The notes beneath the pieces are model-generated. The model was not told the DNA's origin. It did not search any database and worked only from the letters and a program-made list of their open reading frames with translations. Both the position numbers and the translations under genes were made by a program. Positions 50,201-64,000 of a DNA stretch of 64,000 bases are shown here, piece by piece. How positions within the stretch are numbered: the first letter of the stretch is position 1; each line of letters begins with the position of its first letter. Source of the DNA: an uncultured delta proteobacterium (GTDB taxonomy: Bacteria; Desulfobacterota; Binatia; Binatales; Binataceae); the NCBI GenBank assembly GCA_963794325.1, contig CAWCDG010000002.1, positions 352,001 to 416,000 on the forward strand, read 5' to 3'.

Positions 50201-50770
50201 ACCGCGACCGCGACCGCGACGGCGACCAGGACCGCCACCGCAACTGCAACTTCGACCTCAACTGGATCGTCTACTGCAACCGCGACCGCGACGGCCACCA
50301 GGACTGCTACGGCGACGGCGACTTCGACATCAACCGGTTCATCAACGCCGACTGCGACCGCAACCAGGACTGCGACCGCTACTGCGACCGCAACCGCTAC
50401 CGCAACGGCGACTCAGACCGCGACTCCCACCGCGACCGCGACCGCGGGAACCGGACACATAAAGGTGATACCGAAGAAGAAGCTGAACCTGAAAGCGTTG
50501 CCGAGCGCGATGGCCACGCGCACTATCACCATCGACAATACGGGTACTGGCCCGCTGACCGCTAATGTCAGTCCCACGTCGCTTAATCCTCCGTTCTCGG
50601 AGACGGGCGCGGCAGCCGGGATTGTTATCCCCGCGATGAGCTCTCATGAGGTGATAGTCACCTACTCGCCGACGAAGAAGGGAAAGTCGAAGACCTCGGT
50701 CACTATCACGAGCAACGATCCCAAGCATAAGAAGGCGATCAAAATATTGATACAAGGCACGGCGAAATAG
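47201..50770 (+). CDS. Secreted SBBP-repeat (beta-propeller) surface protein with Thr/Ala linker and C-terminal Ig-like domain
   Basis: FERNQGQ, VNYLIG, YPGVD, LVIDP, repeated YSTYLGG / AVDS.GN.YVTG / NAFVAK; long TATATAT linker. Confidence 0.85.
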   Translation: MTVRNSGVAPRARYRTAAVSIGVVFVMAIVVLTLGSRMGAAVSTASAALPGASSGSATSNVASPANKAEAIAKAKGMIASMPTYFERNQGQTDPSVKYLSRSGRYSMFLTGDATTVISMVGGQIHKGPAFAMSNPPAKPDEDRLVESDVRIRLVGANTHPAVAGLEPLPGRVNYLIGDVKSKWHTNIPTFSRVKFSGVYPGVDVVHYGIGDSLEYDIVAAPGADTSKIKLAVEGNATTAIDKDGNLQIITAAGVVVMHKPIVYQQSADGSRTPVGGGFVLAKDGTIENRIQRRDVSFQLAAYDHSRELVIDPVASILVYSTYLGGTASSRGPVNLEQFGGVTGGTALTVADLGLDVALDSANNAYVTGIAYSKNFPTTAGAFQTTLKGANAQPNTNPNAFVAKFNYSSASNAASLVYSTYLGGAGDQVPGDAGNGDGDLGFGVAVDAGNQAFVVGQTYSSGTDTTTGFPGTHLCGAFGQTNDQGAASTNVGFVSKLNSTGSDVIWSCYIDGSDNATESRVALYPVGCGATVGTQCKAYMSGSTQSTIAQGFPGTANRFQMDLRATSGKSNATFIVVHEDGQSLDYATQYGGTGNGTNADAGVAVAVDSNGDGYITGATFSTDLTLANAAFSTYEGGGNSPKTSNAFVAQFNPNQAGSVPNTASLIYATYLGGHGASGTVNITFPVSKSITLTVGDLGTGILVDSSFDIWVTGLTASTDFQKIPGNVGTSFQSHNEAGSRTDCTPNTANPPATAAFVMQLDPVHQTTSNQVRYSTYFGGCGIQVAAPMGFGTGSIGFGDAATGIAAVGSKIYLTGATTSGTLAGHDFPLSANALACNSAGGYRLDDNQSAGFSFGGGLIDIPIVAFASELDTSQAMASNELVFSTLLGGTGTADLGGGIAVDSNGNLVVAGLTYSTDFPITPNAFQFANKGNKNSSTNAFLTVLDPTGSSCPTPFPTPTATATATGATATATPTATATATNTATATATGTTGATATATATRTATATATATRTATATATSTSTGSSTATATATATRTATATATSTSTGSSTPTATATRTATATATATATATATQTATPTATATAGTGHIKVIPKKKLNLKALPSAMATRTITIDNTGTGPLTANVSPTSLNPPFSETGAAAGIVIPAMSSHEVIVTYSPTKKGKSKTSVTITSNDPKHKKAIKILIQGTAK

Positions 50771-50799
50771 ACGAGTAGGTCTCGACAGACGCGCGTAAT

Positions 50800-50831
50800 A
50801 AAGCGGCGAGCCTTAGGGCTCGCCGCTTTTT
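50800..50831. terminator. Bidirectional rho-independent terminator
   Basis: AAAGCGGCGAGCC-TTAG-GGCTCGCCGCTTTTT between convergent genes. Confidence 0.8.
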
Positions 50832-50889
50832 CATTCAGAATACAGCGGTCCGCGCGCGACAACGGAGCCCGGCCATAATACTGAAAAAA

Positions 50890-51696
50890 TCAAATCACAA
50901 TCCCACGATGCGCCCGCACGCTAAGTGAGTATCGTTCCCGCGCTCGGCTAAGCCGCACCGGCGCCGCGAACGCGCTCGACAGCATCGCCGACGTCAGCAC
51001 CTGCGCACGCGGTCCGGCCGCGAGCACGCGACCCGACTTCAGCACCAGCACATGTGAGAATATCGGTACGACTTCTTCGACATGGTGGGTGACCAGTACC
51101 ATTGTCGGCGCTCCTCGAGCACGGGCGATGCGCTGCAAAAATTGCAGGAAATGCTCGCGTGCGACCGGGTCGAGCCCCGCGCACGGCTCGTCGAGGATCA
51201 TCAACCTCGGCGATGCCATCAGCGCTCGTCCTATCAGCACGCGCTGGCGCTCGCCTTGCGATAGATATCGCCACGGACGATCGCGCAGGTCGCGCGCCTC
51301 GATACGACGCAATATTGCGTCGGCGGCGCGCCGATCCTCGGCGCGCATTTCACCCCAATAGCCGATTTGCGCATAGCGTCCGCTGACGATGGCTTTGAGA
51401 GCGGTCTCGCTGTCGTCCATCATCTGATGCACGCTCGAGCTGACCAGCCCAATTCGCGTCCTCAGCTCGCGCCAATCAAATCTCCCGTAAGTCTCACCAA
51501 GCACGCGAATCTCGCCCGCGGTCGGCGGCAGATATCCGGTCAGCGCCCGCAACAGCGAAGTCTTCCCTGACCCGTTGGCTCCAAGAATCGCCCAATGCTC
51601 GCCGCGCGCAACCCGCCAATCAACCGACTCAAGAATCACAGCCTCCCGCTCAACCCGCAGCGAACTCACTTCAATCACAGGCACACTAGATTTCAT
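50890..51696 (-). CDS. ABC transporter ATP-binding protein (ModF/YlmA-like)
   Basis: Walker A GANGSGKT, LSQGE signature, Walker B ILDEP, THH. Confidence 0.9.
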   Translation of the reverse strand: MKSSVPVIEVSSLRVEREAVILESVDWRVARGEHWAILGANGSGKTSLLRALTGYLPPTAGEIRVLGETYGRFDWRELRTRIGLVSSSVHQMMDDSETALKAIVSGRYAQIGYWGEMRAEDRRAADAILRRIEARDLRDRPWRYLSQGERQRVLIGRALMASPRLMILDEPCAGLDPVAREHFLQFLQRIARARGAPTMVLVTHHVEEVVPIFSHVLVLKSGRVLAAGPRAQVLTSAMLSSAFAAPVRLSRARERYSLSVRAHRGIVI

Positions 51697-51748
51697 CGTG
51701 CGCAAACTTTTAACAGCCCGCCTTGTCTGAATGCGAGCCTCCAGATTC

Positions 51749-51770
51749 GTAGGACGGAATTTATTCCGTC
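51749..51770. repeat. GTAG-type REP-like hairpin
   Basis: GTAG followed by GACGGAAT-TT-ATTCCGTC, a perfect 8-bp stem. Confidence 0.5.
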
Positions 51771-51853
51771 GGATTTCCCGCACTGGCAGAAAAGTTCAGG
51801 GATGAACTGTTCAGCCTTATGCAATCTCTTTCCCCGGCGCACAATGCCCCTCG

Positions 51854-53014
51854 ATGCAGCACCTCATTACACGCACCGGCGGTGAAAGCGAGACGCAGGC
51901 GGGCAAACTGATTCCTTCGTTCGTGATCGATACCGCCGGTGCGCCCGCCACCGCGCCGGCCTCCGGAGACTTATCCGCCTCAGCTCCCGAATGGATCGAG
52001 CTGCTCCCGTCGGGCGTCTTCTACGGCCGCGATGGACGCGGGCCGTTTCGCCTCGACGATCCGGCCGCGGTGATCGAATCGACGACCGCATTGCAAATGA
52101 ACGCGGGCATCCCGATTGACTACGATCATGCCACCGACTTCGGTGCGCCCGAAGGACGGCCCGCTCCCGCCGCCGGATGGATTCGCCAATTCGAAGTGCG
52201 TGACGGTGCGGTGTGGGGCCGGGTCGAATGGACCGCGCGCGCATCGAGTTCGATCGTCGCGCGCGAGTACCGCTACGTCTCGCCCGTGTTCCAGTTCGAT
52301 CCGAAAGACGGAAGCGTGACGCGGCTGCTGCGAGCCGGGCTCACCAACAATCCAAATCTTCATTTGACCGCGATTGCGGCGTCGCAAATATCGGCGTCCG
52401 ACAACCAAACGAAGGACCAACAGATGGAATTTCCAACTCAGGAATTGCGCGACCTGCTTAACCTCGAGGGCGATGCGACTGTCGCCGATATCGTCGCAAA
52501 AGTGCGCGAACTGCGCGCGGCCGGCGATGCGGCGTCGTCACAGTCGATTAGCACGCATGCACACGACCCCGCGCACTACGTCGCAATCGCCGAATTCGAG
52601 CGCGCGCTGACTGAGCTGAACGCGCTCAAAGCGGAGCACGCACGCGAACGCGCCGCGCATACGGTGGAAGAAGCGATTCGCGCGGGCAAGCTGGTACCCG
52701 CGCAGCGCGAATGGGCGATCGCGTACTGCGCGGCGGATGCGCGCGGGTTCCAGGCCTTCGCGGCCAAGCAGCCGTCCATCCTCGGCGAAAATCTCGGGCT
52801 GTCGGGAGAGCCGCCTGCCGACCGGCGCGCCGGCGGGCTCAACTCGGCGGAGCTCGCAATCTGCGCGCAGCTCGGCCTCAAGCATTCCGAGTTCATCCGC
52901 CGCAAGCGCGGCCGCGCGGACTTCCTGAGCCTCGAACGCGCCGATGCGGATCTGCGAAACGCGGCAGCCGCGGAACGCGGACCTTACGATAACCGAACAA
53001 CGAGGCGCTCTTAA
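51854..53014 (+). CDS. Mu-like prohead protease/scaffold (gpI)
   Basis: WIELLPSG, RDGRGP, IDYDHAT, APAAGWI, VEWT, YRYVSPVF, GLTNNPNL; helical scaffold C-terminal half. Confidence 0.9.
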   Translation: MQHLITRTGGESETQAGKLIPSFVIDTAGAPATAPASGDLSASAPEWIELLPSGVFYGRDGRGPFRLDDPAAVIESTTALQMNAGIPIDYDHATDFGAPEGRPAPAAGWIRQFEVRDGAVWGRVEWTARASSSIVAREYRYVSPVFQFDPKDGSVTRLLRAGLTNNPNLHLTAIAASQISASDNQTKDQQMEFPTQELRDLLNLEGDATVADIVAKVRELRAAGDAASSQSISTHAHDPAHYVAIAEFERALTELNALKAEHARERAAHTVEEAIRAGKLVPAQREWAIAYCAADARGFQAFAAKQPSILGENLGLSGEPPADRRAGGLNSAELAICAQLGLKHSEFIRRKRGRADFLSLERADADLRNAAAAERGPYDNRTTRRS

Positions 53015-53048
53015 TACTGAAAAAACTCGCGCTCTTAATACTGAAAAA
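53005..53048 (+). repeat. Tandem 20-bp direct repeat containing boxA-like CGCTCTTAA
   Basis: GCGCTCTTAATACTGAAAAA at 53005-53024 and 53029-53048. Confidence 0.75.
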
Positions 53049-53057
53049 GGTGAAAAG

Positions 53058-53540
53058 ATGGCGGCTCTAACCAATTCGCGAAATACGCCCGAGATGGCCG
53101 ACGGCGGCAGGATGCGCGTTTACCCGGTCGAGGCGAACACCAACGTTTACCTCGGCGGGATGGTCGCGCTCAACGCGGCCGGCAACGCGGTGCCGGCGTC
53201 GGCGACGACCACCGTCGCAAATGCGCTCAAGGTCGTGGGGCGCGCGGAATACGTGAAAAACGGAATCCCCGGTCAGAATGCGATCAACAATCCCGGCGCC
53301 GCCGCCGCGATTTCGATCGCCGCGCGCAAGGGAGTGTTCCTCTACGCGACCGACGGCTCGGTCGGCGCAGCCCAGGTCGGACTCGTCTGCTTCGCGCTCG
53401 ACGACAACAACGTTACCGCCACCGATCGCGCAAGCGGTGCCAATGTCCAGCAATACGCGGCGGCCGGCATTGTCGTCGCGATCGATCCAAGCGGCCAGGT
53501 CTGGGTGGATTTCTGGCATCAAGCGACCGCATCCGCATGA
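53058..53540 (+). CDS. Capsid cement/decoration-like protein
   Basis: MAALT..RNTP, YPVEANT..Y.GGMVAL, G..CFALDD..V, VWV; lies between protease and capsid as in Mu-like phages. Confidence 0.65.
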   Translation: MAALTNSRNTPEMADGGRMRVYPVEANTNVYLGGMVALNAAGNAVPASATTTVANALKVVGRAEYVKNGIPGQNAINNPGAAAAISIAARKGVFLYATDGSVGAAQVGLVCFALDDNNVTATDRASGANVQQYAAAGIVVAIDPSGQVWVDFWHQATASA

Positions 53541-53578
53541 CGATGACGTTCACCGGCTAAAAAGAGAGGAAATACTAA

Positions 53579-54523
53579 ATGGAAATCAGCGCAGCGAATC
53601 TGACCGCATTGTTCACCGGCTTCGACGTCGTCTTCCAGCGCGGGTTCGAAAAGCCGCCGTCATACTACGAGCAGATCACCAGCGTCGTGCGCTCGGCCTC
53701 GCGCCAGACTACCTATCCGTGGCTCGGACGCACTACCAAGTTTCGCGAATGGCTGGGCGACAGGGTAATCCAGGCGCTCGAAACGCACGAGTACACAATA
53801 GTCAATCGGAATTTCGAAGATACAGTGGCTATTGATCGAAACGACATCGAAGACGACACCTACGGCGCCTATGAGCCGATCATCGAGCAGCTCGGATGGG
53901 ACACCAAGGTGCATCCCGACATGCTGCTGTTCGCAATGATCAAGGACGCAGTAGCTAATCCCGGCGACGTCGTCGGCTTCGACGGCGTCCCGTTCTTTTC
54001 GGCGAGCCATCCCGTCGGCCTGATGGGTCAGACCGGAAACACCGCGGCGAATATCAACTCAAGCGGATCGGGTGCCTACTGGTATCTGATCGACGCGTCG
54101 CGAGTGATTCGTCCCTTCATCTTTCAGCTCCGTCGCGAATACGCAGTGACGCGAATGACCAATGTCGCCGACGAGGCGGTCTTCAACCGCCGCGAATTCC
54201 GCTACGGCGTGGACGGCCGCGCCAACACCGGCGTCGGCCTGTGGCAGTTGGCCTACGCCAGCAACACCGATCTCAGCAATCCGACCAACTACGGCGCGGT
54301 GCGCGCCGCGATGCGAGCGTTCAAAACCGATGCGGGACAGCCGTTTGGCGCGCTCTCGAGCCGCGACGGTGTGTACCTGCTGGTCCCCCCGACTCTCGAA
54401 GAAGTCGCGCGGCAACTGTTGAACTCAGAGTTCATGGCCGGTGCCGGCGCGAGCGCGAACGTCGCGACCTCGAACATCTGGCGCAACAGCGCGGACCTTA
54501 TCGTCAGCGAGTTCCTGGCATAA
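53579..54523 (+). CDS. Mu-like major head subunit (gpT)
   Basis: YPWLG...REWLGDR, N..FE.TV...R.DIEDD, FDGVPFF...HP, WYLID, PFIFQ.R, YGVDGR, WQLAY, LLVPPTLE. Confidence 0.92.
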   Translation: MEISAANLTALFTGFDVVFQRGFEKPPSYYEQITSVVRSASRQTTYPWLGRTTKFREWLGDRVIQALETHEYTIVNRNFEDTVAIDRNDIEDDTYGAYEPIIEQLGWDTKVHPDMLLFAMIKDAVANPGDVVGFDGVPFFSASHPVGLMGQTGNTAANINSSGSGAYWYLIDASRVIRPFIFQLRREYAVTRMTNVADEAVFNRREFRYGVDGRANTGVGLWQLAYASNTDLSNPTNYGAVRAAMRAFKTDAGQPFGALSSRDGVYLLVPPTLEEVARQLLNSEFMAGAGASANVATSNIWRNSADLIVSEFLA

Positions 54524-54619
54524 GGACGCGGTGAAAAGTGGAACAGCGATGAATCCAGTTTCCCTGAGCCGGCCAGACGCGGGTCCCCCTCCTGCCCGCA
54601 GCGCCGGAGTGCATGGCAA

Positions 54620-54661
54620 CTCTCCGCGGGCGCGCTTCCATTGTTCAGCGCCCGCGGAGAG
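54620..54661 (+). terminator. Perfect 14-bp hairpin downstream of the capsid gene
   Basis: CTCTCCGCGGGCGC (54620-54633) pairs with GCGCCCGCGGAGAG (54648-54661); only a weak U-tract follows. Confidence 0.5.
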
Positions 54662-54706
54662 ACCTTTCAGTCGAATAGTCACTTGCGATGCGACGAGGTT
54701 AGTACA

Positions 54707-55141
54707 GTGAGTTACGCGACCGCCCAGGACATGATCAATCGATACCCTAATCGGGATCTGGTCCAACTGACTAATGAAGATCCAACCGCGACGACCATAA
54801 ACAACGCACCGATCACTCAAGCCCTGGCCGACGCCTCCGCGGAAATCGACGGATACATCGAAGGCCGCTTCACCCTCCCGCTGACGGATCCCCCCGCCGT
54901 CCTCAACCGTCTCACCACCGATATCGCGATGTACCGCATGCAGTCGCTCCGCCCTCTGCACGACCTGGAAGATGCGCGGAAACGATATGAGGACGCGGTC
55001 GCGATGCTCGTGAAGGTAGCGGCCGGCGAGCTCACCCTCGGATTGTCGGCTGACGGCCAGGAACCACCAGTGACAGAAATGCAAGAGAAGGTACAAGGGC
55101 CTGATCGCACATTCAGCCGCAAAAATCTGAGGGGCTACTGA
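54707..55141 (+). CDS. Mu gp36-like (DUF1320) head-tail connector
   Basis: SYATAQDM..RY...L.QLT, ALADASAEIDGY...RF.LPL, DIAMY, RYEDA...L..VA.G...LG. Confidence 0.88.
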   Translation: MSYATAQDMINRYPNRDLVQLTNEDPTATTINNAPITQALADASAEIDGYIEGRFTLPLTDPPAVLNRLTTDIAMYRMQSLRPLHDLEDARKRYEDAVAMLVKVAAGELTLGLSADGQEPPVTEMQEKVQGPDRTFSRKNLRGY

Positions 55142-55142
55142 A

Positions 55143-55964
55143 ATGGGCGTGACGCTTGACGCGCCGTGGAACGGGTTGGTCTTCACACCGCCCTCCGCGA
55201 TCGACATCGCGACGATAGAAGACTCGATCGTTACTCAACTGCGTTCACAAATCAGCTCGATCGAAATCACACACTACCCGGATCGTCCCGAAACCTGGCG
55301 CATGACCCATCGCGTGGGAGCGGCGTTGGTGATGTACAAGGGCGCGCACTACGGCGACCTGCTCGACACCGCAGCAACAATCCAGGAACGCAAACTCGAG
55401 TTCGAGATCTCAATCATGATGCGCGATCTAGGATGGGCCGTCGGTGGCGAGGCGGCGGGGCCTAGTCCGGGCGCATACGCAATTATCGAAGCGGTCCGGA
55501 CCGCGCTGACCGGCTTTGAGGTTCCCGGCTGCCGCAAAATGTTCCCGGTGAGTGAGAAATTCGTGAAGCGCGACAAGCAGGGCGGCGTATGGACGTACGC
55601 TTCGACCTTCGCGCTGAGCACGGTTGCAGTCGAAGGCTCGCAGGCCGATGACTTTCCATTCTTCACCAAGGGCATCGCGCTCGAAGAAGGGGGAGAAAGT
55701 ACACTCACCGTCGGCGCGTCGGCATACTCGTTCAACTCGAATCTCCAGGTTCAGCTTCCCCACGGTAATGCGTTTGCAGTCAGCGTCACAGGTCCCGGCA
55801 ACGCGCAGTTGATCGAAGGCGCGGACTTTTCGGTGGATCGCGCGAACGGAATAGTCATTGCGATTCCCGGCGGTGTGATTTCAGCCGGCGAAACGGTGCA
55901 GATTGCGTACTCATACGCCGACGGGGCTATCGCGACCGCAGGCCAGACCGAGCCGACTAACTAA
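55143..55964 (+). CDS. Mu gp37-like neck/tail-completion protein with an extra C-terminal domain
   Basis: IEDSIV..L, YPD.P, GA.LV.Y.G, GAY..IE.VR..L.GF, GVW.Y; position between gp36 and sheath. Confidence 0.75.
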   Translation: MGVTLDAPWNGLVFTPPSAIDIATIEDSIVTQLRSQISSIEITHYPDRPETWRMTHRVGAALVMYKGAHYGDLLDTAATIQERKLEFEISIMMRDLGWAVGGEAAGPSPGAYAIIEAVRTALTGFEVPGCRKMFPVSEKFVKRDKQGGVWTYASTFALSTVAVEGSQADDFPFFTKGIALEEGGESTLTVGASAYSFNSNLQVQLPHGNAFAVSVTGPGNAQLIEGADFSVDRANGIVIAIPGGVISAGETVQIAYSYADGAIATAGQTEPTN

Positions 55965-56005
55965 TCGGACTAATAGTAACTCATCCGACTGAGTAAAGGT
56001 GATAC

Positions 56006-57547
56006 ATGCCAGCCAGTTTCCTGCATGGAGTTGAAGTAATCGAAGTACCTAATGGGCCGGTGCCGGTCACCGTCGTCAAATCGGCGGTGATCGGATTGGT
56101 CGGGACGGCGCCGACATGGGCGGTGGCGCCGCCAATAGTAGCGGCGGCGCTGAATACGCCGACGCTGGTGTCGTCGGCGCTCAACGCCGCAGAGTTCGGG
56201 CCGACAGTTCGCGGATACACGATTCCGTATGCCTTAGCAGCTATCCAGGCGCAAGGCGCGGGACAGGCGATCGTCGTCAACGTATTCGATCCGACGAGAC
56301 ACTTCACTGCCATAGCTGCGACCGCATTCACGTTCAACGCGCAGAACGCTATCAACCTCGGGCACATGGGAGTGTCGAATGTAGTAGTCACTAGTAATCC
56401 AACTGGTACTATGTACATCGCGGGCACTGACTACACGCTCGACGCGGTGAACGGAGCGGTATCGCTGGTGCCAATCGCCTCGGGAGGACATATTGCCGCC
56501 GGCGCCAGCGTGTTGATTGCGTTCGACTACGCCGATCCGTCGAAGGTGACGGACGCTGATGTGATCGGGGCAATCACCGGCGGCGTGTACACGGGACTTC
56601 AGGTATTCCAGACGACCTACGGCACGTTGGGATTCTTTCCGAAGATCCTGATCGCACCGAGCTATTCGCAAGACCCCACTGTCGCGACCGCTCTCGATGC
56701 GATGGCGACCAAGGTTCGAGCGATGGCGCTGGTCGATTCGCCGCCCGGGACGTCGGCTGCCGCGGCGACAACGAATCGCGGCGTAGTCGGCAACAGCTTC
56801 GCAACTTCGAGCAAGCGAACGATTCTCTGCTACCCGCAAGAGACGTTTTTCGACACTGGAATTGTACCGACCGGAGTGACGCTTAACGCTTCCGGAATCC
56901 CGCTGACATCGCAATTCAACGCGAACGCCGTGGGGCCATATTCGCAGTGGGTGGCTGGAGCGATGGCGGCGAAGGACCTGGCGCAAGGTTACTGGTGGTC
57001 GCCGTCGAACACGCCGGTTGCTGGAATGCTCGGGCCTGATGTTCAGCTCTATGCGTCCATTCTCGACGCGTCGTCGGACGTGAACAGTCTGAACGCCGCG
57101 GGAATCGTGACCGTGTTCAACGCATTCGGCACAGGACTTCGCGTGTGGGGAAACCGGAGCGCGGGGTACCCGACTGCGACCACGCCGGACAATTTTATCT
57201 CGGTACGTCGCACGATGGATGTAATCGAGGAATCCGTGGAGCTGGCGATGCTGCAGTTTATCGATCAGCCGATTTCGAACGCGCTGATCGATGCGATCCT
57301 GGCCAGTGCGAATGCCTTTATCAGATCACTCATCCAGCGTGGAGCATTGGTCGCGGGGGCGGCGAGCTTCAACCCGGCAGAGAATCCATCGGCACAAATT
57401 GCGGGAGGCCAGCTGGTATTCGATATCGACGTAATGCCGCCGCCGCCTGCGGAAAGAATCACGTTCGAAGCATTCATCGATGTAACGTTGCTGCAGCAAC
57501 TAGGGAGCACGAGCCCGATCACTGTAGCTGCGGGGGCGACGGCATAA
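56006..57547 (+). CDS. Contractile tail sheath protein (P2 FI-like)
   Basis: FLHGVEVIEV, SAVIGLVGTAP, PKILIAP, GYWWSPSN, LNAAGIVT, G.RVWGNR, FISVRRT, PPPAERITF. Confidence 0.93.
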   Translation: MPASFLHGVEVIEVPNGPVPVTVVKSAVIGLVGTAPTWAVAPPIVAAALNTPTLVSSALNAAEFGPTVRGYTIPYALAAIQAQGAGQAIVVNVFDPTRHFTAIAATAFTFNAQNAINLGHMGVSNVVVTSNPTGTMYIAGTDYTLDAVNGAVSLVPIASGGHIAAGASVLIAFDYADPSKVTDADVIGAITGGVYTGLQVFQTTYGTLGFFPKILIAPSYSQDPTVATALDAMATKVRAMALVDSPPGTSAAAATTNRGVVGNSFATSSKRTILCYPQETFFDTGIVPTGVTLNASGIPLTSQFNANAVGPYSQWVAGAMAAKDLAQGYWWSPSNTPVAGMLGPDVQLYASILDASSDVNSLNAAGIVTVFNAFGTGLRVWGNRSAGYPTATTPDNFISVRRTMDVIEESVELAMLQFIDQPISNALIDAILASANAFIRSLIQRGALVAGAASFNPAENPSAQIAGGQLVFDIDVMPPPPAERITFEAFIDVTLLQQLGSTSPITVAAGATA

Positions 57548-57571
57548 CTCGCCCGACACGAGAGGTACACA

Positions 57572-58090
57572 ATGAACATCCAGATCAACTCACTGACTAA
57601 TGCGAATATATACATCGACGGCATTGGACTACTCGGGCGAGCTGAAGAGATCGAGATCGCGAATCCCAAGCACAAGATGATTGACTACAAGGGCTTGGGG
57701 ATGGCCGGCACGGCTGAGTTGTGGGCGGGTGTCGAAAAGCTCGAGTCAAAAATCAAGTGGGCGTCTTTCGACGCGGAGACGCTCACGATGTCGAGCAGCC
57801 CATTTCAAACGCACTCCTTTCAAGCGCGCGGGAATCTCGAGCAGTACACCAGCCAGGGAAGAACCGCGCAGCTTCCGGTGGTGTATCTGATGACCGGGGT
57901 CTTCAAAGATGCGGGGAGTCCCACCTTCCGGCAACATCAGATGGTCGAGACTACTTCAATAGTAAGTATCTACCACTGTGAACTATTCGTCGCCGGCGTC
58001 CAAATATACTTGTACGACGTATTCGCCAATATTTACGTAGTAGGCGGCGTCGATCAACTGAGTACGTTCCGATCGAGTCTTGGCGGGTGA
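57572..58090 (+). CDS. Major tail tube protein (P2 FII-like)
   Basis: NANIYIDG..LLGRAEEI..., GMAG....GVEKLE; 172 aa directly after the sheath. Confidence 0.88.
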   Translation: MNIQINSLTNANIYIDGIGLLGRAEEIEIANPKHKMIDYKGLGMAGTAELWAGVEKLESKIKWASFDAETLTMSSSPFQTHSFQARGNLEQYTSQGRTAQLPVVYLMTGVFKDAGSPTFRQHQMVETTSIVSIYHCELFVAGVQIYLYDVFANIYVVGGVDQLSTFRSSLGG

Positions 58091-58097
58091 GTGACTA

Positions 58098-58463
58098 ATG
58101 AACACCGACGACACAACAGTGAATGGAGTGCGAATAGGTGGCAAGGAAGCCGCTGACGAAGCGGGTGCACGATCGATCGAGCTGCCGTCGGGCGCTCATG
58201 CCGAGGTGCGAAAAGGCTATGGGCGAGACCTGATGCGGGCGCAACGGGCAGCGGTCGGCGGAGACGCGAGCGCAGTGATATTTGCTTTGATCGCCGAGGT
58301 AGCTCGCGTAAATGGATGCAAGATCGTGTACGAGGACGTGCTCGAGATGGATCTGGCGGACGTTATGGCGTTACAGGCGGAGGTGATTGACGAAAATTTC
58401 GACCGCCCTCCGCAGCGAGCTTCGCAGGTCTCATCCAATTCGGATTCTCGGTCCAGGAATTGA
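58098..58463 (+). CDS. Tail assembly chaperone (P2 gpE / Mu gp41-like)
   Basis: Position after the tube; 'GRDLMRAQ...EDVLEMDLADV..L'. Confidence 0.8.
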   Translation: MNTDDTTVNGVRIGGKEAADEAGARSIELPSGAHAEVRKGYGRDLMRAQRAAVGGDASAVIFALIAEVARVNGCKIVYEDVLEMDLADVMALQAEVIDENFDRPPQRASQVSSNSDSRSRN

Positions 58464-58561
58464 GCGGGATGGATTTTGCGGAGCTGTCGTACTGGCTGGA
58501 CGCAATGATTGAGTATCAACGGATGTGCGTCGAACGCGGCGGAGGGGCGAGTCGTGACTAG
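58098..58561 (+). CDS. Extended chaperone (E+E'-like) made by -1 frameshift at A AAT TTC (58394-58400)
   Basis: In-frame X XXY YYZ heptamer. The -1 frame reads FRPPSAASFAGLIQFGFSVQELSGMDFAELSYWLDAM... to TAG 58559-58561, resembling GpE'-type 'EL..M...EL..W'. Confidence 0.7.
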
Positions 58562-58621
58562 TAATCGCAGTGACTATACCAGAGTGTGCGTAGTGAGTAA
58601 TCCACAAGAGACGGTGAGGCG

Positions 58622-58906
58622 ATGGGAATAAGACTATTCGTTGGCAATCTGAGTTTTTCGTTGGGCGATGGGGATTTGCGTGAGGCCTTTGCCGAGATAG
58701 GCGGTGTAGATCGGGCTGAGATCGTGCGCGATCGGTTCGACGGACGCTCGCGCGGATTCGGCTTTGTCGAAATGAAGACTCAGGACGACGCCGCGGTCGC
58801 GCTGCGGGCAATGAACGGCAAAGAACTGGCAGGGCGTCCTCTGCGAGTGGAAGCAGCGACCTCGCATCGTCGCCCGTTCGACCGCAACGCCGCGCGCCCG
58901 CAGTAG
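58622..58906 (+). CDS. RRM (RNP-1) RNA-binding protein
   Basis: RNP2 LFVGNL, RNP1 RGFGFVEM, 'MNGKELAGRPLRV'; GAGG RBS. Confidence 0.93.
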   Translation: MGIRLFVGNLSFSLGDGDLREAFAEIGGVDRAEIVRDRFDGRSRGFGFVEMKTQDDAAVALRAMNGKELAGRPLRVEAATSHRRPFDRNAARPQ

Positions 58907-58939
58907 AAACACCGAAAGACGGGGCATCGCAGCGAGCAC

Positions 58940-59774
58940 ATGGCAAAGCAATCCAGACCAATCAACCCGACAGGGGGGACCAGGCGCGCGGACGCCGCGC
59001 GCGCGCTTAGGCAGCTTGATCGAGTGACTAGTATCGCGCGCGAGAACCGTCGAATCTCGCGGGCTGCGGCGAGCGTTGCGCGGGCTCGAGAGTTTCGTTG
59101 GCAGCCCTCTGCGGGGGCTTCGCTTTTGAAGCAGGCTCAGTTTGTTGAAGAAGACTCGCGCATTGAGCGAGGAACTGCTCGCGATGGCTCTGGCGGCGGT
59201 TCAGCGTGCGAGTTGGGGCGGCAGGACTAATATCGCGACTGCAGAACCTGGGCGGCGTAGCGCGGCGGCATTGGTCGAGGCCTCGAGTCGCTCGCGCCGA
59301 CAGATTCCGGAATTGTTTCAGGCGATGAAGGCTTTGGCGCGGATTGAACGCTCGGTCGAGTCGGGAAGCGCGGGACGAGCGATTTCAGAGCTGCGAAAAT
59401 ACTCGATGCCTACGTCAGTGTCCAAGTCTAATACGACGGGCCGAGGGCTTGGGAGTCCGGAAGCGCGACAACCATCGCTCGCCGGCGCGGGCAAATTAGC
59501 GAGCGTCCGTATTGCGCGATCGATTCGCGCAGCGAAACTGCCCGCGAGTGTTTCGCAGCGGGAGTTCGCGCAGCCGTCGGGCGACGTGCGCGGTTCTAAT
59601 CAAACCGGCGGGCGAGGCGGGATTACGATCAACTCATCGCCGACAGTCGTGATCAATGCGCCTGCGAGCGGCGCCATGCAGAATGATGTGATTGGCGCAT
59701 TGCGAGCGCATCGCGAAGAACTGTTCGATGAGTTGAAACGGGAATCGGCGCGACGCGAGCGCGCGCAGTTCTGA
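58940..59774 (+). pseudogene. Short tape-measure-like protein in two overlapping frames (about 277 aa if joined)
   Basis: Occupies the tape-measure slot before gpU. C-terminus 'ITINSSPTVVIN...LRAHREELFDELKRESARRERAQF' resembles tape-measure termini. Span is 835 nt (3n+1). Confidence 0.5.
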
Positions 59775-59779
59775 GGAGA

Positions 59780-60370
59780 ATGCACTTGTTCGCAGCATTG
59801 GGCGACATTCAATTCGAAGTGGTTGGCTCTCCGGAAACCTATGAATCCGCGGCGGCGTATGACTTCGCCGAGCAGAAGGTGATCGAGAGTAAGCCGCTGC
59901 TGCAGTGGGTTGGCAACGATCTCGAACGGCTGAAGTTCGAGCTGATGTGGCACGCGTCATTCACGAATCCGGGGGCGCAGCTGGCGCAGTTGCGCGCGAC
60001 GGCCGCAGAGCACCTCGCACTGCCGCTGGTCTTTGGCAACGGGGGATTTCGCGGCTTCTTTGTCATCGAATCGATCAATGTGAAATCGCAGCAACTGTCG
60101 GCGGGCGGATCCCCGATTGCAATCCGCGTTGCCCTGGCACTCAAGGAATCGATAGCAGATCCTCTGCTGCTGTCCAGAACGCAGCCGCTGACTGGATTGT
60201 CGCCGCTGGGAATCGTGATTGCGCAGCAGGAGGCGGGTGGCCGTGCGAACGCGATCGCGTCCGGCGTGTCGGTATTACTCAGTATTCCGTTAGCGGCGGG
60301 GACAAGCGGTCCCAATCTTGAGGCAGGCGATGTGCCGGCCCCAGCTATCGTGAGGAGCGCGGGGCGATGA
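59780..60370 (+). CDS. Phage tail protein (P2 gpU-like)
   Basis: FAALGDIQF, KPLLQWVG..L, LPLVFGNG...G.FVIESI. Confidence 0.82.
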   Translation: MHLFAALGDIQFEVVGSPETYESAAAYDFAEQKVIESKPLLQWVGNDLERLKFELMWHASFTNPGAQLAQLRATAAEHLALPLVFGNGGFRGFFVIESINVKSQQLSAGGSPIAIRVALALKESIADPLLLSRTQPLTGLSPLGIVIAQQEAGGRANAIASGVSVLLSIPLAAGTSGPNLEAGDVPAPAIVRSAGR

Positions 60371-60609
60371 TGCTTTCGGGACGTTTAATACTTCACGTCA
60401 CGACGGCGGGTGAACGGTGGGACCTGCTAGCCTGGCGATACTACGGTGATCCGACTGACTATTCGCCGATTATAATGGCTAATCCGAATGTAGCTATTGA
60501 ACCGGTATTCGATGCCGGCATCTCAATAGCGATACCGCTTCAGCAGAAGAGCGCGATGGCGACGGCCAACCTGCCGCCCTGGAAAGTATCACAAGCGGTG
60601 AGCGGGTAA
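60367..60609 (+). CDS. Tail protein X (LysM-like)
   Basis: T.AGERWDLLAWRYYG......I..ANP, LPPWK. Confidence 0.85.
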   Translation: MMLSGRLILHVTTAGERWDLLAWRYYGDPTDYSPIIMANPNVAIEPVFDAGISIAIPLQQKSAMATANLPPWKVSQAVSG

Positions 60610-61625
60610 TGGCTGCGGGGGCATTTAATATAGTTCGATCGCCGCAGTGGATACTCACTTATTCGGATGTGAACATTACGGCAGATGTATCGGAGATGGT
60701 TCTTGCAATCAGGTATATCGATCGGCTCGACGGCACCTCGAGCGATCTGGAGATTGAACTCGAAGACTCAGGGAAGCTGTGGCAGGGGCCGTGGTATCCG
60801 GTGATCGGCGACATAGTCAGTCTGCAAATTGGCTATAGCAATGAGCTATTGCTGGACTGCGGAACATTCCAGATTGACGAGTTGGAATCGGATGGGCCGC
60901 CCGACGTTATGAGACTGCGATGCCTTGCCGCGTACATCACGACCGCGATGCGGACCGCAAATACTGTGGCCTACGAAAACATGGGCATCGTAGAAATCGT
61001 GGCGCAAATCGCGGCGAAGTATGGATTGACGGTGGTGATGGCGTCGTCCGAATCGGAAAACGACATAACGTTTGCGCGCGTGACGCAGCGGCGTCAGATG
61101 GATTTGGAATTTCTGAAGCGCCTGGGGAGAGAGCACAATTTTGATTTCACGGTGCGTGCCGGTCAACTGATCTTTTACGAGCGAGCGGCGCTCGAATCTA
61201 TTCCGGCCGCGACGTTGATTACGCGATCTGACACTTTGCGGTTCGCATTTCGGAACCGGGCGCGCCGAATCTACGACGCCGCGGACTTCTCGTACTTCGA
61301 TCCTGATACGAAAGAGCTGATTACTCAGTCGGTACCGTCGGACGGATCTTCGCCGACGGGCGATACCCTGAAAATCGTTGCGCGCTGTGAAAATGCAGAG
61401 CAGGCGCAGGTCAAAGCAGCAGCCGGACTTCATTTGCACAACATGGTGTTGGTGGACGCGTCGATTGAAGGACCCGGGAACACGGTGCTGGTGGCCGGGA
61501 ACAACGTGCAGCTCAGTGGATGGGGCGCGCTCGATGGGAAGTATTTGATCGAGACCGCAAAGCATCACATGGCGCGCGCGACGGGATACACAACATCAAT
61601 TGCAGCGCGACGGATTAACCCATGA
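60609..61625 (+). CDS. Baseplate hub / late control D family protein
   Basis: Y.D...G.S..LEI.LED, L.IGY, G.F.IDE....GPP, Q....DLEFL.RL, G.YLI....H....GY.T. Confidence 0.88.
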   Translation: MAAGAFNIVRSPQWILTYSDVNITADVSEMVLAIRYIDRLDGTSSDLEIELEDSGKLWQGPWYPVIGDIVSLQIGYSNELLLDCGTFQIDELESDGPPDVMRLRCLAAYITTAMRTANTVAYENMGIVEIVAQIAAKYGLTVVMASSESENDITFARVTQRRQMDLEFLKRLGREHNFDFTVRAGQLIFYERAALESIPAATLITRSDTLRFAFRNRARRIYDAADFSYFDPDTKELITQSVPSDGSSPTGDTLKIVARCENAEQAQVKAAAGLHLHNMVLVDASIEGPGNTVLVAGNNVQLSGWGALDGKYLIETAKHHMARATGYTTSIAARRINP

Positions 61626-62314
61626 ACGACATAATTGAATACCGCGAGCGATTTGCTGCGCTGAACCCCACGTTCCGGGTCGGGATTGTGCAGGCGCAGG
61701 ACCCCGCGCATGCGAAGGTGCGGGTGGTGTTTCCGGATTACGACGAAATGATCAGCTGGTGGCTGCCGGTTGTTTTTGCAAAGACCCAGAACGACAAGGT
61801 GTACTGGATTCCGGATATCGGCGAGCAGGTCGTTTGCCTGATGGACCTGCGCGACGAGGCCGGCGCGGTGCTGGGTGCGATCTATTCGAGCGCCGACACG
61901 CCGCCAGTAAACAGCGCTGACAAGTTTCATCTCGCGTTCAGGGACGGCGCGCACTTCGACTACGATCGCGTCGCGCATCTGCTCGATCTCCTTTTCCAGG
62001 ACACGACGGAACTCAAATACGACGCTCGGGTGCATCTGCTCGATCTGAAATTTCAGGATCAGGCGGAGCTGCAGTATGACGGTACCGAGCATGTTCTGAG
62101 CATGAATCTGCCGCAGGGTGCGGCGTTCAATCTCTCGGCGAACGGTGCGCAGATTCAGATCGACTCGAACGGCAACGTCGTCATCAAGAGTGGAGGGCTG
62201 GTTCAGATCGGGAACGGCCCGCTGGCAGGTGTCGCTCGGCTGGGCGATCGAGTGCAAGTCGGCGAGGCGACCGGAACGATCGTGAGCGCGAGCACCGACG
62301 TGCTGGCGGGATGA
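61622..62314 (+). CDS. Baseplate assembly protein V (central spike)
   Basis: OB-fold 'KVRV.FPD.....WWLPV', P.IGEQVVCL, G.VLGAIYS; beta-repeats. Confidence 0.88.
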   Translation: MNDIIEYRERFAALNPTFRVGIVQAQDPAHAKVRVVFPDYDEMISWWLPVVFAKTQNDKVYWIPDIGEQVVCLMDLRDEAGAVLGAIYSSADTPPVNSADKFHLAFRDGAHFDYDRVAHLLDLLFQDTTELKYDARVHLLDLKFQDQAELQYDGTEHVLSMNLPQGAAFNLSANGAQIQIDSNGNVVIKSGGLVQIGNGPLAGVARLGDRVQVGEATGTIVSASTDVLAG

Positions 62315-62733
62315 CGATGCCGGCAGGCGCAATTACACTTGCAGATATCAGATCGGCTGATTGGTCGTTGGCTCTAGGAGCCATCGGCGAAGTAGTGCAG
62401 GGGATCGCCGACGTCGAACAGTGTTTGGGAATTATTGTGACGACGCCGCGCGGGAGCGACCCTTTGCGGCCGACCTTCGGCGCGAATATCTGGCGGTACA
62501 TCGACTTTCCGATCAGTCTTGCGCTACCCGCAATCGTCAGCGAACTGACCTCGGCGATCACAATTTGGGAGCCGCGCGTGAATCTTGTTTCGGTGACGGC
62601 GCAAAGCGTCAACGATGCGACTGCGCAATCGGGCGCGCAGCTCGACGTCACGCTCAGCTGGCGGCTCAAGCTGGGCGTCACCGGGGCTCCCGTTCAGATC
62701 ACGACCGTGACAATCCCGGGAGCGGCGGTCTAG
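62311..62733 (+). CDS. GPW/gp25-family baseplate protein
   Basis: II.TTPRGS.PLRP.FG....YID.P, AI..WEPRV. Confidence 0.9.
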   Translation: MTMPAGAITLADIRSADWSLALGAIGEVVQGIADVEQCLGIIVTTPRGSDPLRPTFGANIWRYIDFPISLALPAIVSELTSAITIWEPRVNLVSVTAQSVNDATAQSGAQLDVTLSWRLKLGVTGAPVQITTVTIPGAAV

Positions 62734-62765
62734 CCGGGGCCGCGCCGACGCGATGAAAGGATGAG

Positions 62766-63938
62766 TTGATGGGTGCAGGAATTCCGTCGCTGCCGCCGCC
62801 GGTGTTCGTCAACGACGCGGACGGTCTCGATCCAAACCTGATCCTCGCGGACATGATCGCCGAGTTCGAGGCGGCGTCGGGCCGGACGCTTCAACCGGCC
62901 CAGGTGGAGCGCCTGCTCATTAATTTGTATGCGTACCGCGAATCGCTGGTGCGCAACGCGATTCAGTATGCGGCCGAGCAGAATCTGCTCGCGTTCGCAT
63001 CGTTCCCGATGCTCGATTATCTAGGTCAACTGTTGAGCGTCAATCGATTGGCCTCGCAGCCCGCGGTGACGACGATTCAATTCACCTTGACCGGCGCGCT
63101 GACGGTGCCGTTTACGATTGCTGCGGGAACCCTGGTCGGCACGAGCGATGGGCAGTTTGCATTCGCAACCAGCGCGACGATCACACTCGCGGCCGGTGCA
63201 ACCATCGCAAGTGTCGCTGCCGCCGCGACGGCTCCAGGAGCGGGTGCGAATGGATACCTGGCGGGACAAGTCAGCGTCCAGCTCAATCCGAACAGTTTGA
63301 TCGCGAGCGTGACGAACACCAGCACGACCACCGGTGGCTCTGCTCCCGAGACGGACGATCATCTGCGCACGCGCATCCAGGCTGCGCCGAATCAATTCAG
63401 CGTCGCGGGACCGAGCGGGGCGTACCGGTTCTTTGCGATCGGCGCGGACCCGTCGATCGTCGATGCGCAAATTGTCAGTCCCTCTCCCGGATCGGTGAAT
63501 GTGTATGTGCTGACGGGACCGGTGACGCAACAGCCTGCGCCGGCGCCGAACAGCGCGGGAGTCGCGAACTCCGCGTTGCTTGCAAAAGTCGCGACGGTGC
63601 TGAATGCCGACACGATGCGTCCGTTGACCGACACCGTGAACGTGCTTGCAGTGACCGAGGTGGACTACCAGATCACCGCGACGGTGACGCTGTATTCGGA
63701 TGCCGATCCCACTGCGACGATCGTCGCGGCAACGGCGGCCGTCACCGAACTGGCGCTCGAGCTGGCGGCCAAGATTCAGCGCGACATCGTGCCGAGCCAG
63801 ATAATTGCGGCGCTATCGGTGGCGGGCGTCTATGGCGTGACGCTCACGTCGCCGACTCTGACGACGCTCACCTATGGGCAGTGGGCGAACTGCACGACGA
63901 TCGCGCTGACGACAGCGTTCAGCACGGAGCATAGCTGA
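62766..63938 (+). CDS. Baseplate J/gp47-family protein
   Basis: AYRE.L.R, LDYLG, ETDDHLRTRI, SVAGPSGAY, PGSVNVY, RPLTDTV. Confidence 0.92.
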   Translation: MMGAGIPSLPPPVFVNDADGLDPNLILADMIAEFEAASGRTLQPAQVERLLINLYAYRESLVRNAIQYAAEQNLLAFASFPMLDYLGQLLSVNRLASQPAVTTIQFTLTGALTVPFTIAAGTLVGTSDGQFAFATSATITLAAGATIASVAAAATAPGAGANGYLAGQVSVQLNPNSLIASVTNTSTTTGGSAPETDDHLRTRIQAAPNQFSVAGPSGAYRFFAIGADPSIVDAQIVSPSPGSVNVYVLTGPVTQQPAPAPNSAGVANSALLAKVATVLNADTMRPLTDTVNVLAVTEVDYQITATVTLYSDADPTATIVAATAAVTELALELAAKIQRDIVPSQIIAALSVAGVYGVTLTSPTLTTLTYGQWANCTTIALTTAFSTEHS

Positions 63939-64000
63939 TGCCCGAGCTGTCGGCCGCTCCTTCGATTAACGATACGCGCACGCAGGCGCTGCTGGAGTTG
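63938..64000 (+). CDS. Probable tail protein I (P2 gpI-like), partial at window end
   Basis: ATG overlaps the J stop (TGATG); MPELSAAPSINDTRTQALLEL...; assigned by synteny only. Confidence 0.55.
   Translation, partial: MPELSAAPSINDTRTQALLEL

Follow-up and report, generated by a model that had tools for sequence, protein, structure and literature searches.

An RNA recognition motif gene in the tail-assembly block of Mu-like elements from Binataceae

The tail modules of phages P2 and lambda share a gene order in which the tail tube is followed by an assembly chaperone with a -1 slippery site (E/E+E' in P2, G/GT in lambda), the tape measure and gpU, and the -1 extension of the chaperone is conserved. 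The same order and extension are found in a 64,000-nucleotide stretch of DNA (hereafter the window) from an uncultured delta proteobacterium of the family Binataceae (assembly GCA_963794325.1, contig CAWCDG010000002.1, positions 352,001 to 416,000), with two differences: an extra gene, encoding a protein with a single RNA recognition motif (RRM), stands between chaperone and tape measure, and the tape measure is short (257–382 aa in the genus) or, in four genera that keep the chaperone, absent. It is well supported that this RRM gene is a functional, selected and position-fixed gene of the tail-assembly block, with a product predicted to be competent for nucleic-acid binding, and that it is a long-standing accessory gene of this block (tube, chaperone, RRM, tape measure, gpU) in Mu-like myophages of the Binataceae.

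Three further groups of described systems are relevant. Cyanobacterial Rbp and Bacteroides RbpB are bacterial proteins of the single-RRM type, and the window protein resembles such proteins in its full-length RRM_1 match, its RNP1 and RNP2 motifs and its predicted fold; it differs from them by lacking a Gly/Arg-rich tail, by forming its own clade and by lying inside a phage tail block instead of a housekeeping locus. In phage Mu, Com is an RNA-binding translational activator of the zinc-finger type and N is a DNA-end-binding tail protein of the DNA-circulation family. Their likeness to the RRM protein is a functional analogy only, that of a small nucleic-acid-binding protein serving late genes or ejected DNA; both have folds unlike the RRM, and no homology is implied. 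Finally, RcGTA and PBSX are examples of gene transfer agents and defective phages. Like these, the cluster around the RRM gene combines head, packaging and tail genes without mobility genes, is single-copy with fixed flanks, is spread through a whole family under purifying selection and has host genes inserted between its modules. It differs in joining a Mu-type head to a P2-type contractile tail, in its occurrence in Binataceae, where its particles are predicted from the genes, and in carrying an S24 repressor, which suggests a DNA-damage trigger, and a Mor-type activator. Each part belongs to a known kind: the protein is an RRM protein, the block a P2/Mu tail module and the cluster a domesticated element resembling gene transfer agents. 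Full-text literature searches, covering listings and abstract openings, turned up no relevant work on RRMs in tail operons or on particles of phage origin in Binatia.

The RRM gene and its slot behind the chaperone

The protein matches the Pfam family RRM_1 (PF00076) over profile positions 1–70 of 70 (E = 1.2e-21; 76.7 bits, cut-off 20.7), and its 94 residues contain both RNP motifs (RNP2, LFVGNL; RNP1, RGFGFVEM), in agreement with the first-pass annotation, which had described a complete single-RRM open reading frame (ORF) at 58622–58906. An AlphaFold2 model built on an alignment of 29 sequences predicts the β-α-β-β-α-β order (E3-8, H16-24, E29-36, E43-51, H54-64 and E75-78) with a mean pLDDT of 82.5 and a tail that is disordered from about residue 80. 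Solved structures that match best are RRMs from eukaryotes (poly(A)-binding protein, E = 3.3e-37). Aromatic residues occupy all three canonical positions in 22 of 22 in-cluster RRMs (F/Y at position 2 of RNP2, residue 6; F46 and F48 in RNP1), and the in-cluster proteins lack the Gly/Arg-rich tail typical of the family's housekeeping paralogues. The latter number about four per genome in the host family, and the window protein is 40–49% identical to the four in its own genome. Two of these housekeeping genes form a tandem pair about 500 bp apart (G000:C4:84589-85287; L001, L005), a pair also seen in genomes G034 and G084.

The RRM gene is a separate ORF: stop codons intervene between it and the -1 extension of the chaperone, the end of which lies about 60 nt before the RRM start; in several genera this gap is a few to a few tens of nucleotides. 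Its GC content (0.611) does not set it apart from the cluster (0.602). The sequence ACGGTGAG around the Shine-Dalgarno-like run is mostly kept across the genus alignment and a TAGTAAT...GTGACTATA stretch 5' of the gene is restricted to the genus, while no cis element 5' of the RRM is conserved across genera. A scan of positions 51700–64000 found no sigma-70-like promoter on the + strand and seven terminator-like sites, which is not above the chance expectation of 9.8. As far as these scans tell, the RRM would be co-transcribed with the tail operon, which fits the initial description of a co-oriented gene with its own ribosome-binding site (GGTGAGG 5' of the ATG) and no evident terminator.

The gene 5' of the RRM is, by its position between tube and tape measure and its frameshift signature, a tail assembly chaperone with a predicted programmed -1 frameshift. 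The profile scores are weak (Pfam Phage_TAC_7, 22.9 bits at a cut-off of 25; Phage_TAC_15, 19.9 bits at a cut-off of 22), and the protein family that it matches, phrog_21320 (E = 1.5e-22), carries no functional label. The slippery heptamer is invariant in 16 of 16 genus sequences and in register in 9 of 9 loci checked across genera, and the peptide of the -1 extension is kept across genera, including those without a tape measure. This frameshift signature, together with Pfam and PHROG matches, gives the gene order and bears out the earlier placement of the RRM between the chaperone and the tape-measure slot.

The position is shared by orthologous clusters and is not private to this genome. Within the genus, the RRM directly follows the chaperone in all 18 relatives' loci with enough flank, one more locus being cut by a contig end; identities are 83–97% for the RRM, 72–84% for full-length chaperone matches and 34–60% for pieces of the tape measure, and the IMG/VR database holds 36 fragments with close copies. 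In other genera, 18 of 32 loci carry the RRM (g39, g44, g37, g35, g27, g47, g45, g33, g36, g26, part of g38 and g40, and two second-copy elements), never without the chaperone (18/18), and the in-slot identity falls to about 41–47% with the position unchanged. Of 80 IMG/VR loci with an RRM relative, 54 have it directly after the chaperone of this tail type; the other 26 are unrelated contexts, many of them contigs of 130–470 kb. The RRM genes of these 26 loci (L264–L292), which are without this tail type, are 41–51% identical to the window RRM. Among at least 80 GTDB matches listed, tail genes occur near the RRM only in two, both from Binataceae, and one GTDB record shows the same gene order with identities of 86% (RRM), 94% (tube) and 79% (chaperone). 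The RRM protein matched no PHROG family, and 50,697 deposited phage records gave one weak match (42% identity, E = 1e-3), in a Microcystis jumbo phage.

Three observations concern the slot in loci without a recognizable RRM. In g51, the space between chaperone and tape measure holds ORFs of 95–124 aa with repeated 'SLVGG' peptides (L037, L038, L055), probably short tandem repeats of the DNA. Genome G110 of the same genus has five RRM genes by Pfam search, none inside the cluster. In genome G170 (g38), a 94-aa ORF in the slot (L042:3111-3395) contains 'RSFGFLQ' but is not matched to the RRM by tblastn; a decayed copy of the gene is a possible reading.

In a tree of 57 RRMs (one row from the unpublished genome G024), 35 in-cluster sequences form one clade (support 100/96) apart from 22 housekeeping RRMs of six family genomes, and group internally by genera. 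A wider quick tree of 107 rows, including five genus RRMs and 40 of the recovered sequences from other phyla, chosen for likeness to the query, retained this clade (SH-aLRT 97) and did not join it to the family's housekeeping RRMs. Both trees therefore support a clade of its own for the in-cluster RRM. A short branch (94/96) in the 57-row tree hinted at an origin from a host housekeeping paralogue, which the 107-row tree did not confirm.

Selection was assessed by pairwise Nei-Gojobori ratios of nonsynonymous to synonymous substitution rates (dN/dS) on 16 genus sequences (15 for the sheath), with L013 (truncated), L014 and L026 (error-ridden) and L018 (unpublished) left out. The RRM ORF is intact in all 16. 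Its dN/dS is about 0.05 in the genus and 0.05–0.11 in g44 and g39, compared with 0.05 and 0.02–0.09 for the tube, 0.10 and 0.05–0.07 for the sheath, and 0.15 and 0.10–0.13 for the chaperone. Mean dS in the genus is 0.7–1.0, and in g44 and g39 dN/dS spans 0.02–0.19 over sheath, tube, chaperone, RRM, gpU and gpD. With an RRM ratio of about 0.05, like that of the tube protein, we reject a neutral insertion, which the first-pass annotation had left possible. The gene also lacks the promoter, terminator or deviant GC content of its own that would mark an independently expressed accessory insert (moron), although its presence among related elements is patchy, as in such inserts.

The short tape measure and its loss

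The tape-measure gene is a single ORF of 257–382 aa in 26 of 27 IMG/VR genus loci that reach gpU (the remaining locus has none) and in genomes G034 and G036, and is read in two frames in the window (Table 1). A short-read contig of run X1 (depth 10.7) is one base shorter at 59206, which by frame arithmetic yields one ORF of 277 aa, so that an assembly error or a strain variant probably explains the frame break. Over its last ~50 residues, the protein matches the stretch immediately 5' of gpU in other genera. The tape-measure gene (59168–59201) and the chaperone gene (58331–58364) have a 34-nt stretch in common at 82% identity, which may be chance; a repeat scan of 51700–64000 gave weak families only.

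Seven RRM-bearing loci of four genera have no tape measure (L031, L032 and L056 in g44; L029 and L030 in g39; L035 in g27; L036 in g47), and gpU begins within about 100 nt of the RRM stop. L094 likewise has no tape-measure gene between RRM and gpU. The chaperone is kept in all seven, with an in-register slippery site and -1 extension in 5 of 5 checked; the chaperone ratios quoted above for g44 and g39 were measured in genera that have lost the tape measure. Conversely, three loci without both tape measure and RRM (L048, L049, L050) are also without the chaperone (3/3). A search of five tape-measure-less genomes with one query found no tape measure elsewhere. The sole match in those genomes lies in the RRM gene read in another frame; it is an artefact caused by the overlapping start of the query and was discarded.

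Apparently mobile and domesticated carriers of the tail block

A contig from the same bacterial family (G171:C22; L210, L211) carries an apparently intact transposable Mu-like phage. Its genes comprise a helix-turn-helix (HTH) repressor, MuA transposase domains, a MuB-like ATPase, Gam, gp27, the large terminase, portal, MuF, protease, capsid and gp36, followed by a Phage_tail_S-family (virion morphogenesis) protein, gp37, sheath and tube, and then chaperone, RRM and tape measure. Flanking the RRM (Pfam E = 2.3e-20) are the chaperone and a tape measure (Pfam PhageMin_Tail) that is 623 aa or longer. A 47.5-kb IMG/VR contig (L212) has an identical tail block from sheath to tape measure (100% at the protein level) and continues with gpU, X, D, V and W. 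The presence of the RRM in a mobile phage indicates that it belongs to the phage lineage and was not added after domestication. In this phage, MuF forms a fusion with an ADP-ribosyltransferase domain (Pfam ART, E = 7.4e-11).

By its gene content, the window cluster (Table 1) is a Mu-type head with a P2-type tail, and it extends beyond the window into gpI and fibre genes (L008: Tail_P2_I and a fibre C-terminal domain). Its gpT-type major head protein is 94.6–97.5% identical in two genus relatives. The cluster is divided between contigs C2 (51854-63938 and L008:1-4512) and C3, the latter holding a packaging block (L007, G000:C3:91685-100227) of an S24/HTH repressor, a Mor-type activator, a Mu gp27-type small terminase, a large terminase and a Mu portal. 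The outer flanks of these two loci are the outer flanks of one continuous arrangement in G034 and G036: a carboxyltransferase; repressor, Mor, terminases and portal; a methyltransferase gene with two small ORFs; a host insert; protease to fibre genes; and a Mur-ligase-like gene. Portal and tube are 13–36 kb apart on one contig in 18 genus genomes and 1.25 Mb apart in G007. The packaging genes are missing near the RRM because of a rearrangement in this genome, in which a minus-strand ABC ATPase gene stands directly 5' of the protease gene; the assertion that the particle has no local DNA-packaging motor therefore fails, as small terminase, large terminase and portal are on C3 and, in the genus relatives, lie within the same flanking host genes as the tube.

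The host insert of G034 and G036 contains the same ABC ATPase, together with a gene for a 1189-aa protein that is clear in G034 and weakly matched in G036. In G084, of another genus, both genes lie directly 5' of the head-tail block and the Mur-ligase-like gene is the downstream flank, and in G110 (g51) packaging and head-tail blocks are contiguous, with no host insert. As these genes sit between the two blocks (G034; the ABC ATPase in G036) or upstream (G084), we regard them as host genes inserted into the element. In the window itself, positions 47201–51783, just 5' of the head-tail block, encode the ABC ATPase and the 1189-aa protein, a secreted repeat protein whose long linker is rich in Thr, Ala and Pro.

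The tube protein is present as a single copy in 36 of 36 other genus genomes (84–97% identity), in 75 of 120 other family genomes (20 of 30 genera) and in none of 24 genomes from 12 other families of the class. The large terminase is found in 84 of the 120 family genomes and 22 of 30 genera, mostly as open frames. These counts include the unpublished genomes G019 and G024 (genus) and G081, G105, G107, G122 and G134 (family), without which the tube is found in 34/34 genus and 69/114 family genomes, leaving the conclusions unaffected. In tblastn searches (E = 1e-4) of this genome, the completeness of which (85%) sets the scope of gene-absence results, no match was obtained with the MuA, MuB-like, Gam, MuF-ART, repressor and Phage_tail_S-family proteins of the mobile phage, and portal, large terminase, capsid and protease from the same query set were found. 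The transposase result is a tblastn result, as the Pfam profile Mu-transpos_C missed control genomes too. With its conserved flanks, single copy, lack of mobility genes and purifying selection, the cluster looks like a domesticated, vertically inherited and immobile particle cluster resembling a gene transfer agent or PBSX.

Table 1 Features of the head-tail cluster in the window (positions are those of the window)
Feature	Position	Strand	Basis and remarks
Mu-like protease/scaffold (gpI)	51854..53014	+	Pfam Mu-like_Pro, E 9.8e-71; phrog_328; first gene of the head-tail block here
Virion structural or decoration-like protein	52944..53540	+	phrog_1731, E 1.2e-23; no Pfam match
Major head protein, Mu gpT type	53579..54523	+	Pfam Mu-like_gpT, E 1.6e-92
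Head-tail adaptor, Mu gp36	54641..55141	+	Pfam Phage_Mu_Gp36, E 2.5e-35
Mu gp37-like protein, Ig-like C-terminal part	55143..55964	+	Pfam Gp37, E 2.7e-31; phrog_807 on residues 203-260
Contractile tail sheath	56006..57547	+	Pfam Phage_sheath_1 and sheath_1C; phrog_23, E 1.7e-92
Tail tube, P2 FII type	57572..58090	+	Pfam Phage_tube, E 1.3e-37
Tail assembly chaperone, zero-frame product (P2 gpE / lambda gpG analogue)	58098..58463	+	Position and frameshift signature; sub-threshold Pfam matches; phrog_21320
Chaperone -1 frame extension (E'/T-like)	58391..58561	+	Open -1 frame; 56 codons and stop
Slippery heptamer A_AAT_TTC, predicted -1 frameshift	58394..58400	+	In register with the chaperone frame, near its 3' end
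Shine-Dalgarno-like GGTGAGG	58613..58619	+	Directly 5' of the RRM start
RRM protein gene	58622..58906	+	94 aa, ATG start; single RRM domain and short basic tail
Short tape-measure gene, two frames here	58940..59774 (58940-59230 and 59142-59774)	+	Slot position; no Pfam or PHROG match
P2 gpU-like tail protein	59780..60370	+	Pfam Phage_P2_GpU, E 7.5e-26
P2 gpX-like tail protein	60367..60609	+	Pfam Phage_tail_X, E 1e-12
gpD-like baseplate hub	60609..61625	+	phrog_52, E 3.3e-79; weak Pfam Phage_GPD
gpV-like spike or baseplate assembly protein	61622..62314	+	Pfam Phage_base_V; phrog_9992
gpW / gp25-like wedge protein	62311..62733	+	Pfam GPW_gp25, E 3e-12
gpJ-like baseplate wedge protein	62766..63938	+	Pfam Baseplate_J, E 2.5e-48

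Roles considered for the RRM protein

Our tentative reading, to which we assign a probability of about 0.38, is that the RRM protein is a chaperone-handled, tail-associated nucleic-acid-binding protein; its chaperone-client relation, its location in the tail and its binding to DNA ends are steps that we infer. The protein would be made along with the tail-assembly proteins, the chaperone may handle it as it handles the tape measure, and its final place would be inside or on the tail, at the lumen or hub. With its intact RNP surface it could bind single-stranded nucleic acid there, one possible target being the DNA ends leaving the particle, a job comparable to that of Mu N. In genera without a tape measure, the RRM would be the sole remaining client of the chaperone. 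This reading is ranked first because the RRM keeps the client slot, never occurs without the chaperone and is the only gene left beside a selected chaperone where the tape measure is gone. A complex prediction for chaperone and RRM returned a score of 0.00, which gives no verdict and is neutral for all readings. Equally neutral is the finding that none of the sequencing runs listed as containing the stretch is an RNA run.

Several points weigh against this reading. The presence of the RRM in particles and its binding to the chaperone are deduced, and particle production by these clusters is itself read from gene content. Canonical RRMs usually bind RNA, and a role at the RNA level fits the domain at least as naturally. 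The co-retention pattern reflects few and phylogenetically dependent events, perhaps one to four tape-measure losses with the RRM and one or two without. The RRM is absent from 14 of the 32 other-genus loci (g51, g50, g49, g34, g28, g42 and others), the clusters of which look otherwise intact, and it is therefore not essential for particle building. In this genome, which is 85% complete, tblastn recovered no homologue of MuF or of the Phage_tail_S-family protein, and the Pfam profile Phage_Mu_F had no match either. In a stronger version, which we regard as improbable, the chaperone would load the RRM into the tail lumen or hub, where it would stand in for a lost tape measure by nucleating or plugging the tube, perhaps with bound single-stranded nucleic acid.

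The RRM could instead be a cis-acting post-transcriptional factor of the late operon that binds tail mRNA and either sets how often the -1 frameshift occurs or how well the following gene (tape measure or gpU) is translated, or keeps the long GC-rich transcript unfolded or protected. We consider this possible, if doubtful. It draws on the canonical and conserved RNA-binding residues, on the proximity of the RRM start to the frameshift extension, on the co-transcription suggested by the scans and on the dispensability of the RRM in some lineages, which fits a modulator; Mu Com and the protein-stimulated frameshifting known from some RNA viruses offer analogies, without homology. The regulatory role finds no counterpart, however, in conserved sequence 5' of the RRM across genera or in known RNA elements, as an Rfam search at E up to 1 on 50500–64000 gave one sub-threshold match, outside the cluster. 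The boxA-like repeats invoked by the first-pass annotation did not stand out either, the GACTAGTAATCGC motif with up to three mismatches occurring nine times in the window, where 13.4 are expected. Furthermore, slippery site and -1 extension are equally conserved without the RRM (L038 of g51), a regulator needs no fixed place beside the chaperone, and four genera without a tape measure retain the RRM, so that tape-measure regulation cannot be its sole role. It is unlikely, in our view, that the gene is a host-directed accessory gene (a selected moron) encoding a late general RNA chaperone or a takeover factor acting on host RNAs, with its position a historical accident. Its patchy distribution (absent from those 14 loci), the RRM genes in 26 other IMG/VR contigs of unrelated context and in one Microcystis jumbo phage, and the several housekeeping RRMs of each host-family genome would suit such a gene. 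Yet it has neither a promoter or terminator of its own nor deviant GC content, its slot is invariant even at the lowest RRM identities, the RGG-type tail of the family's general RNA chaperones is lost, and the chaperone is retained with it where the tape measure is lost. The related proposal of a recruited host factor is also weakened, given that the in-cluster clade did not group with the family's housekeeping RRMs in the wider tree and that the gene occurs in the apparently mobile phage.

The two remaining explanations are contradicted by the data. A neutral passenger in a decaying prophage remnant might be suspected from the split of the cluster over two contigs, the two frames of the tape-measure gene and the missing MuF and Phage_tail_S-family homologues. 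We give it very little credence: dN/dS is 0.05 at a dS of about 1, the ORF is intact in every clean genus sequence, the single-copy cluster has the same chromosomal flanks in two genera, tube and large terminase persist in 20 and 22 of 30 genera, and the tape-measure break is absent from the short-read contig. Least credible is the loading of RNA into the particle in place of DNA, for which the sole argument is that a structural operon includes an RNA-binding domain. Its premise, a missing packaging motor, does not hold: both terminase subunits and the portal are present, intact and conserved, the packaging genes adjoin the head-tail block in relatives, and the related mobile phage belongs to the transposable DNA phages.

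RRM genes are rare in phages, as the PHROG and phage-record searches illustrate. The fixation of one in a single slot of the tail block, in a mobile phage as well as in a domesticated cluster and under selection as tight as that on the tube, points to an undescribed step at which nucleic acid is bound, be it during tail assembly, during DNA delivery or in the control of late genes, and its retention by the family-wide cluster suggests that it serves the particle. The usual view that contractile phage tails need a tape measure is challenged by clusters in which sheath, tube, baseplate, chaperone and RRM stay under selection with no such gene; if the RRM did take over from the tape measure, a contractile tail would assemble with a nucleic-acid-binding protein, delivered by the chaperone, in place of a protein tape measure. 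For the uncultured Binataceae, the cluster represents a candidate system resembling gene transfer agents.

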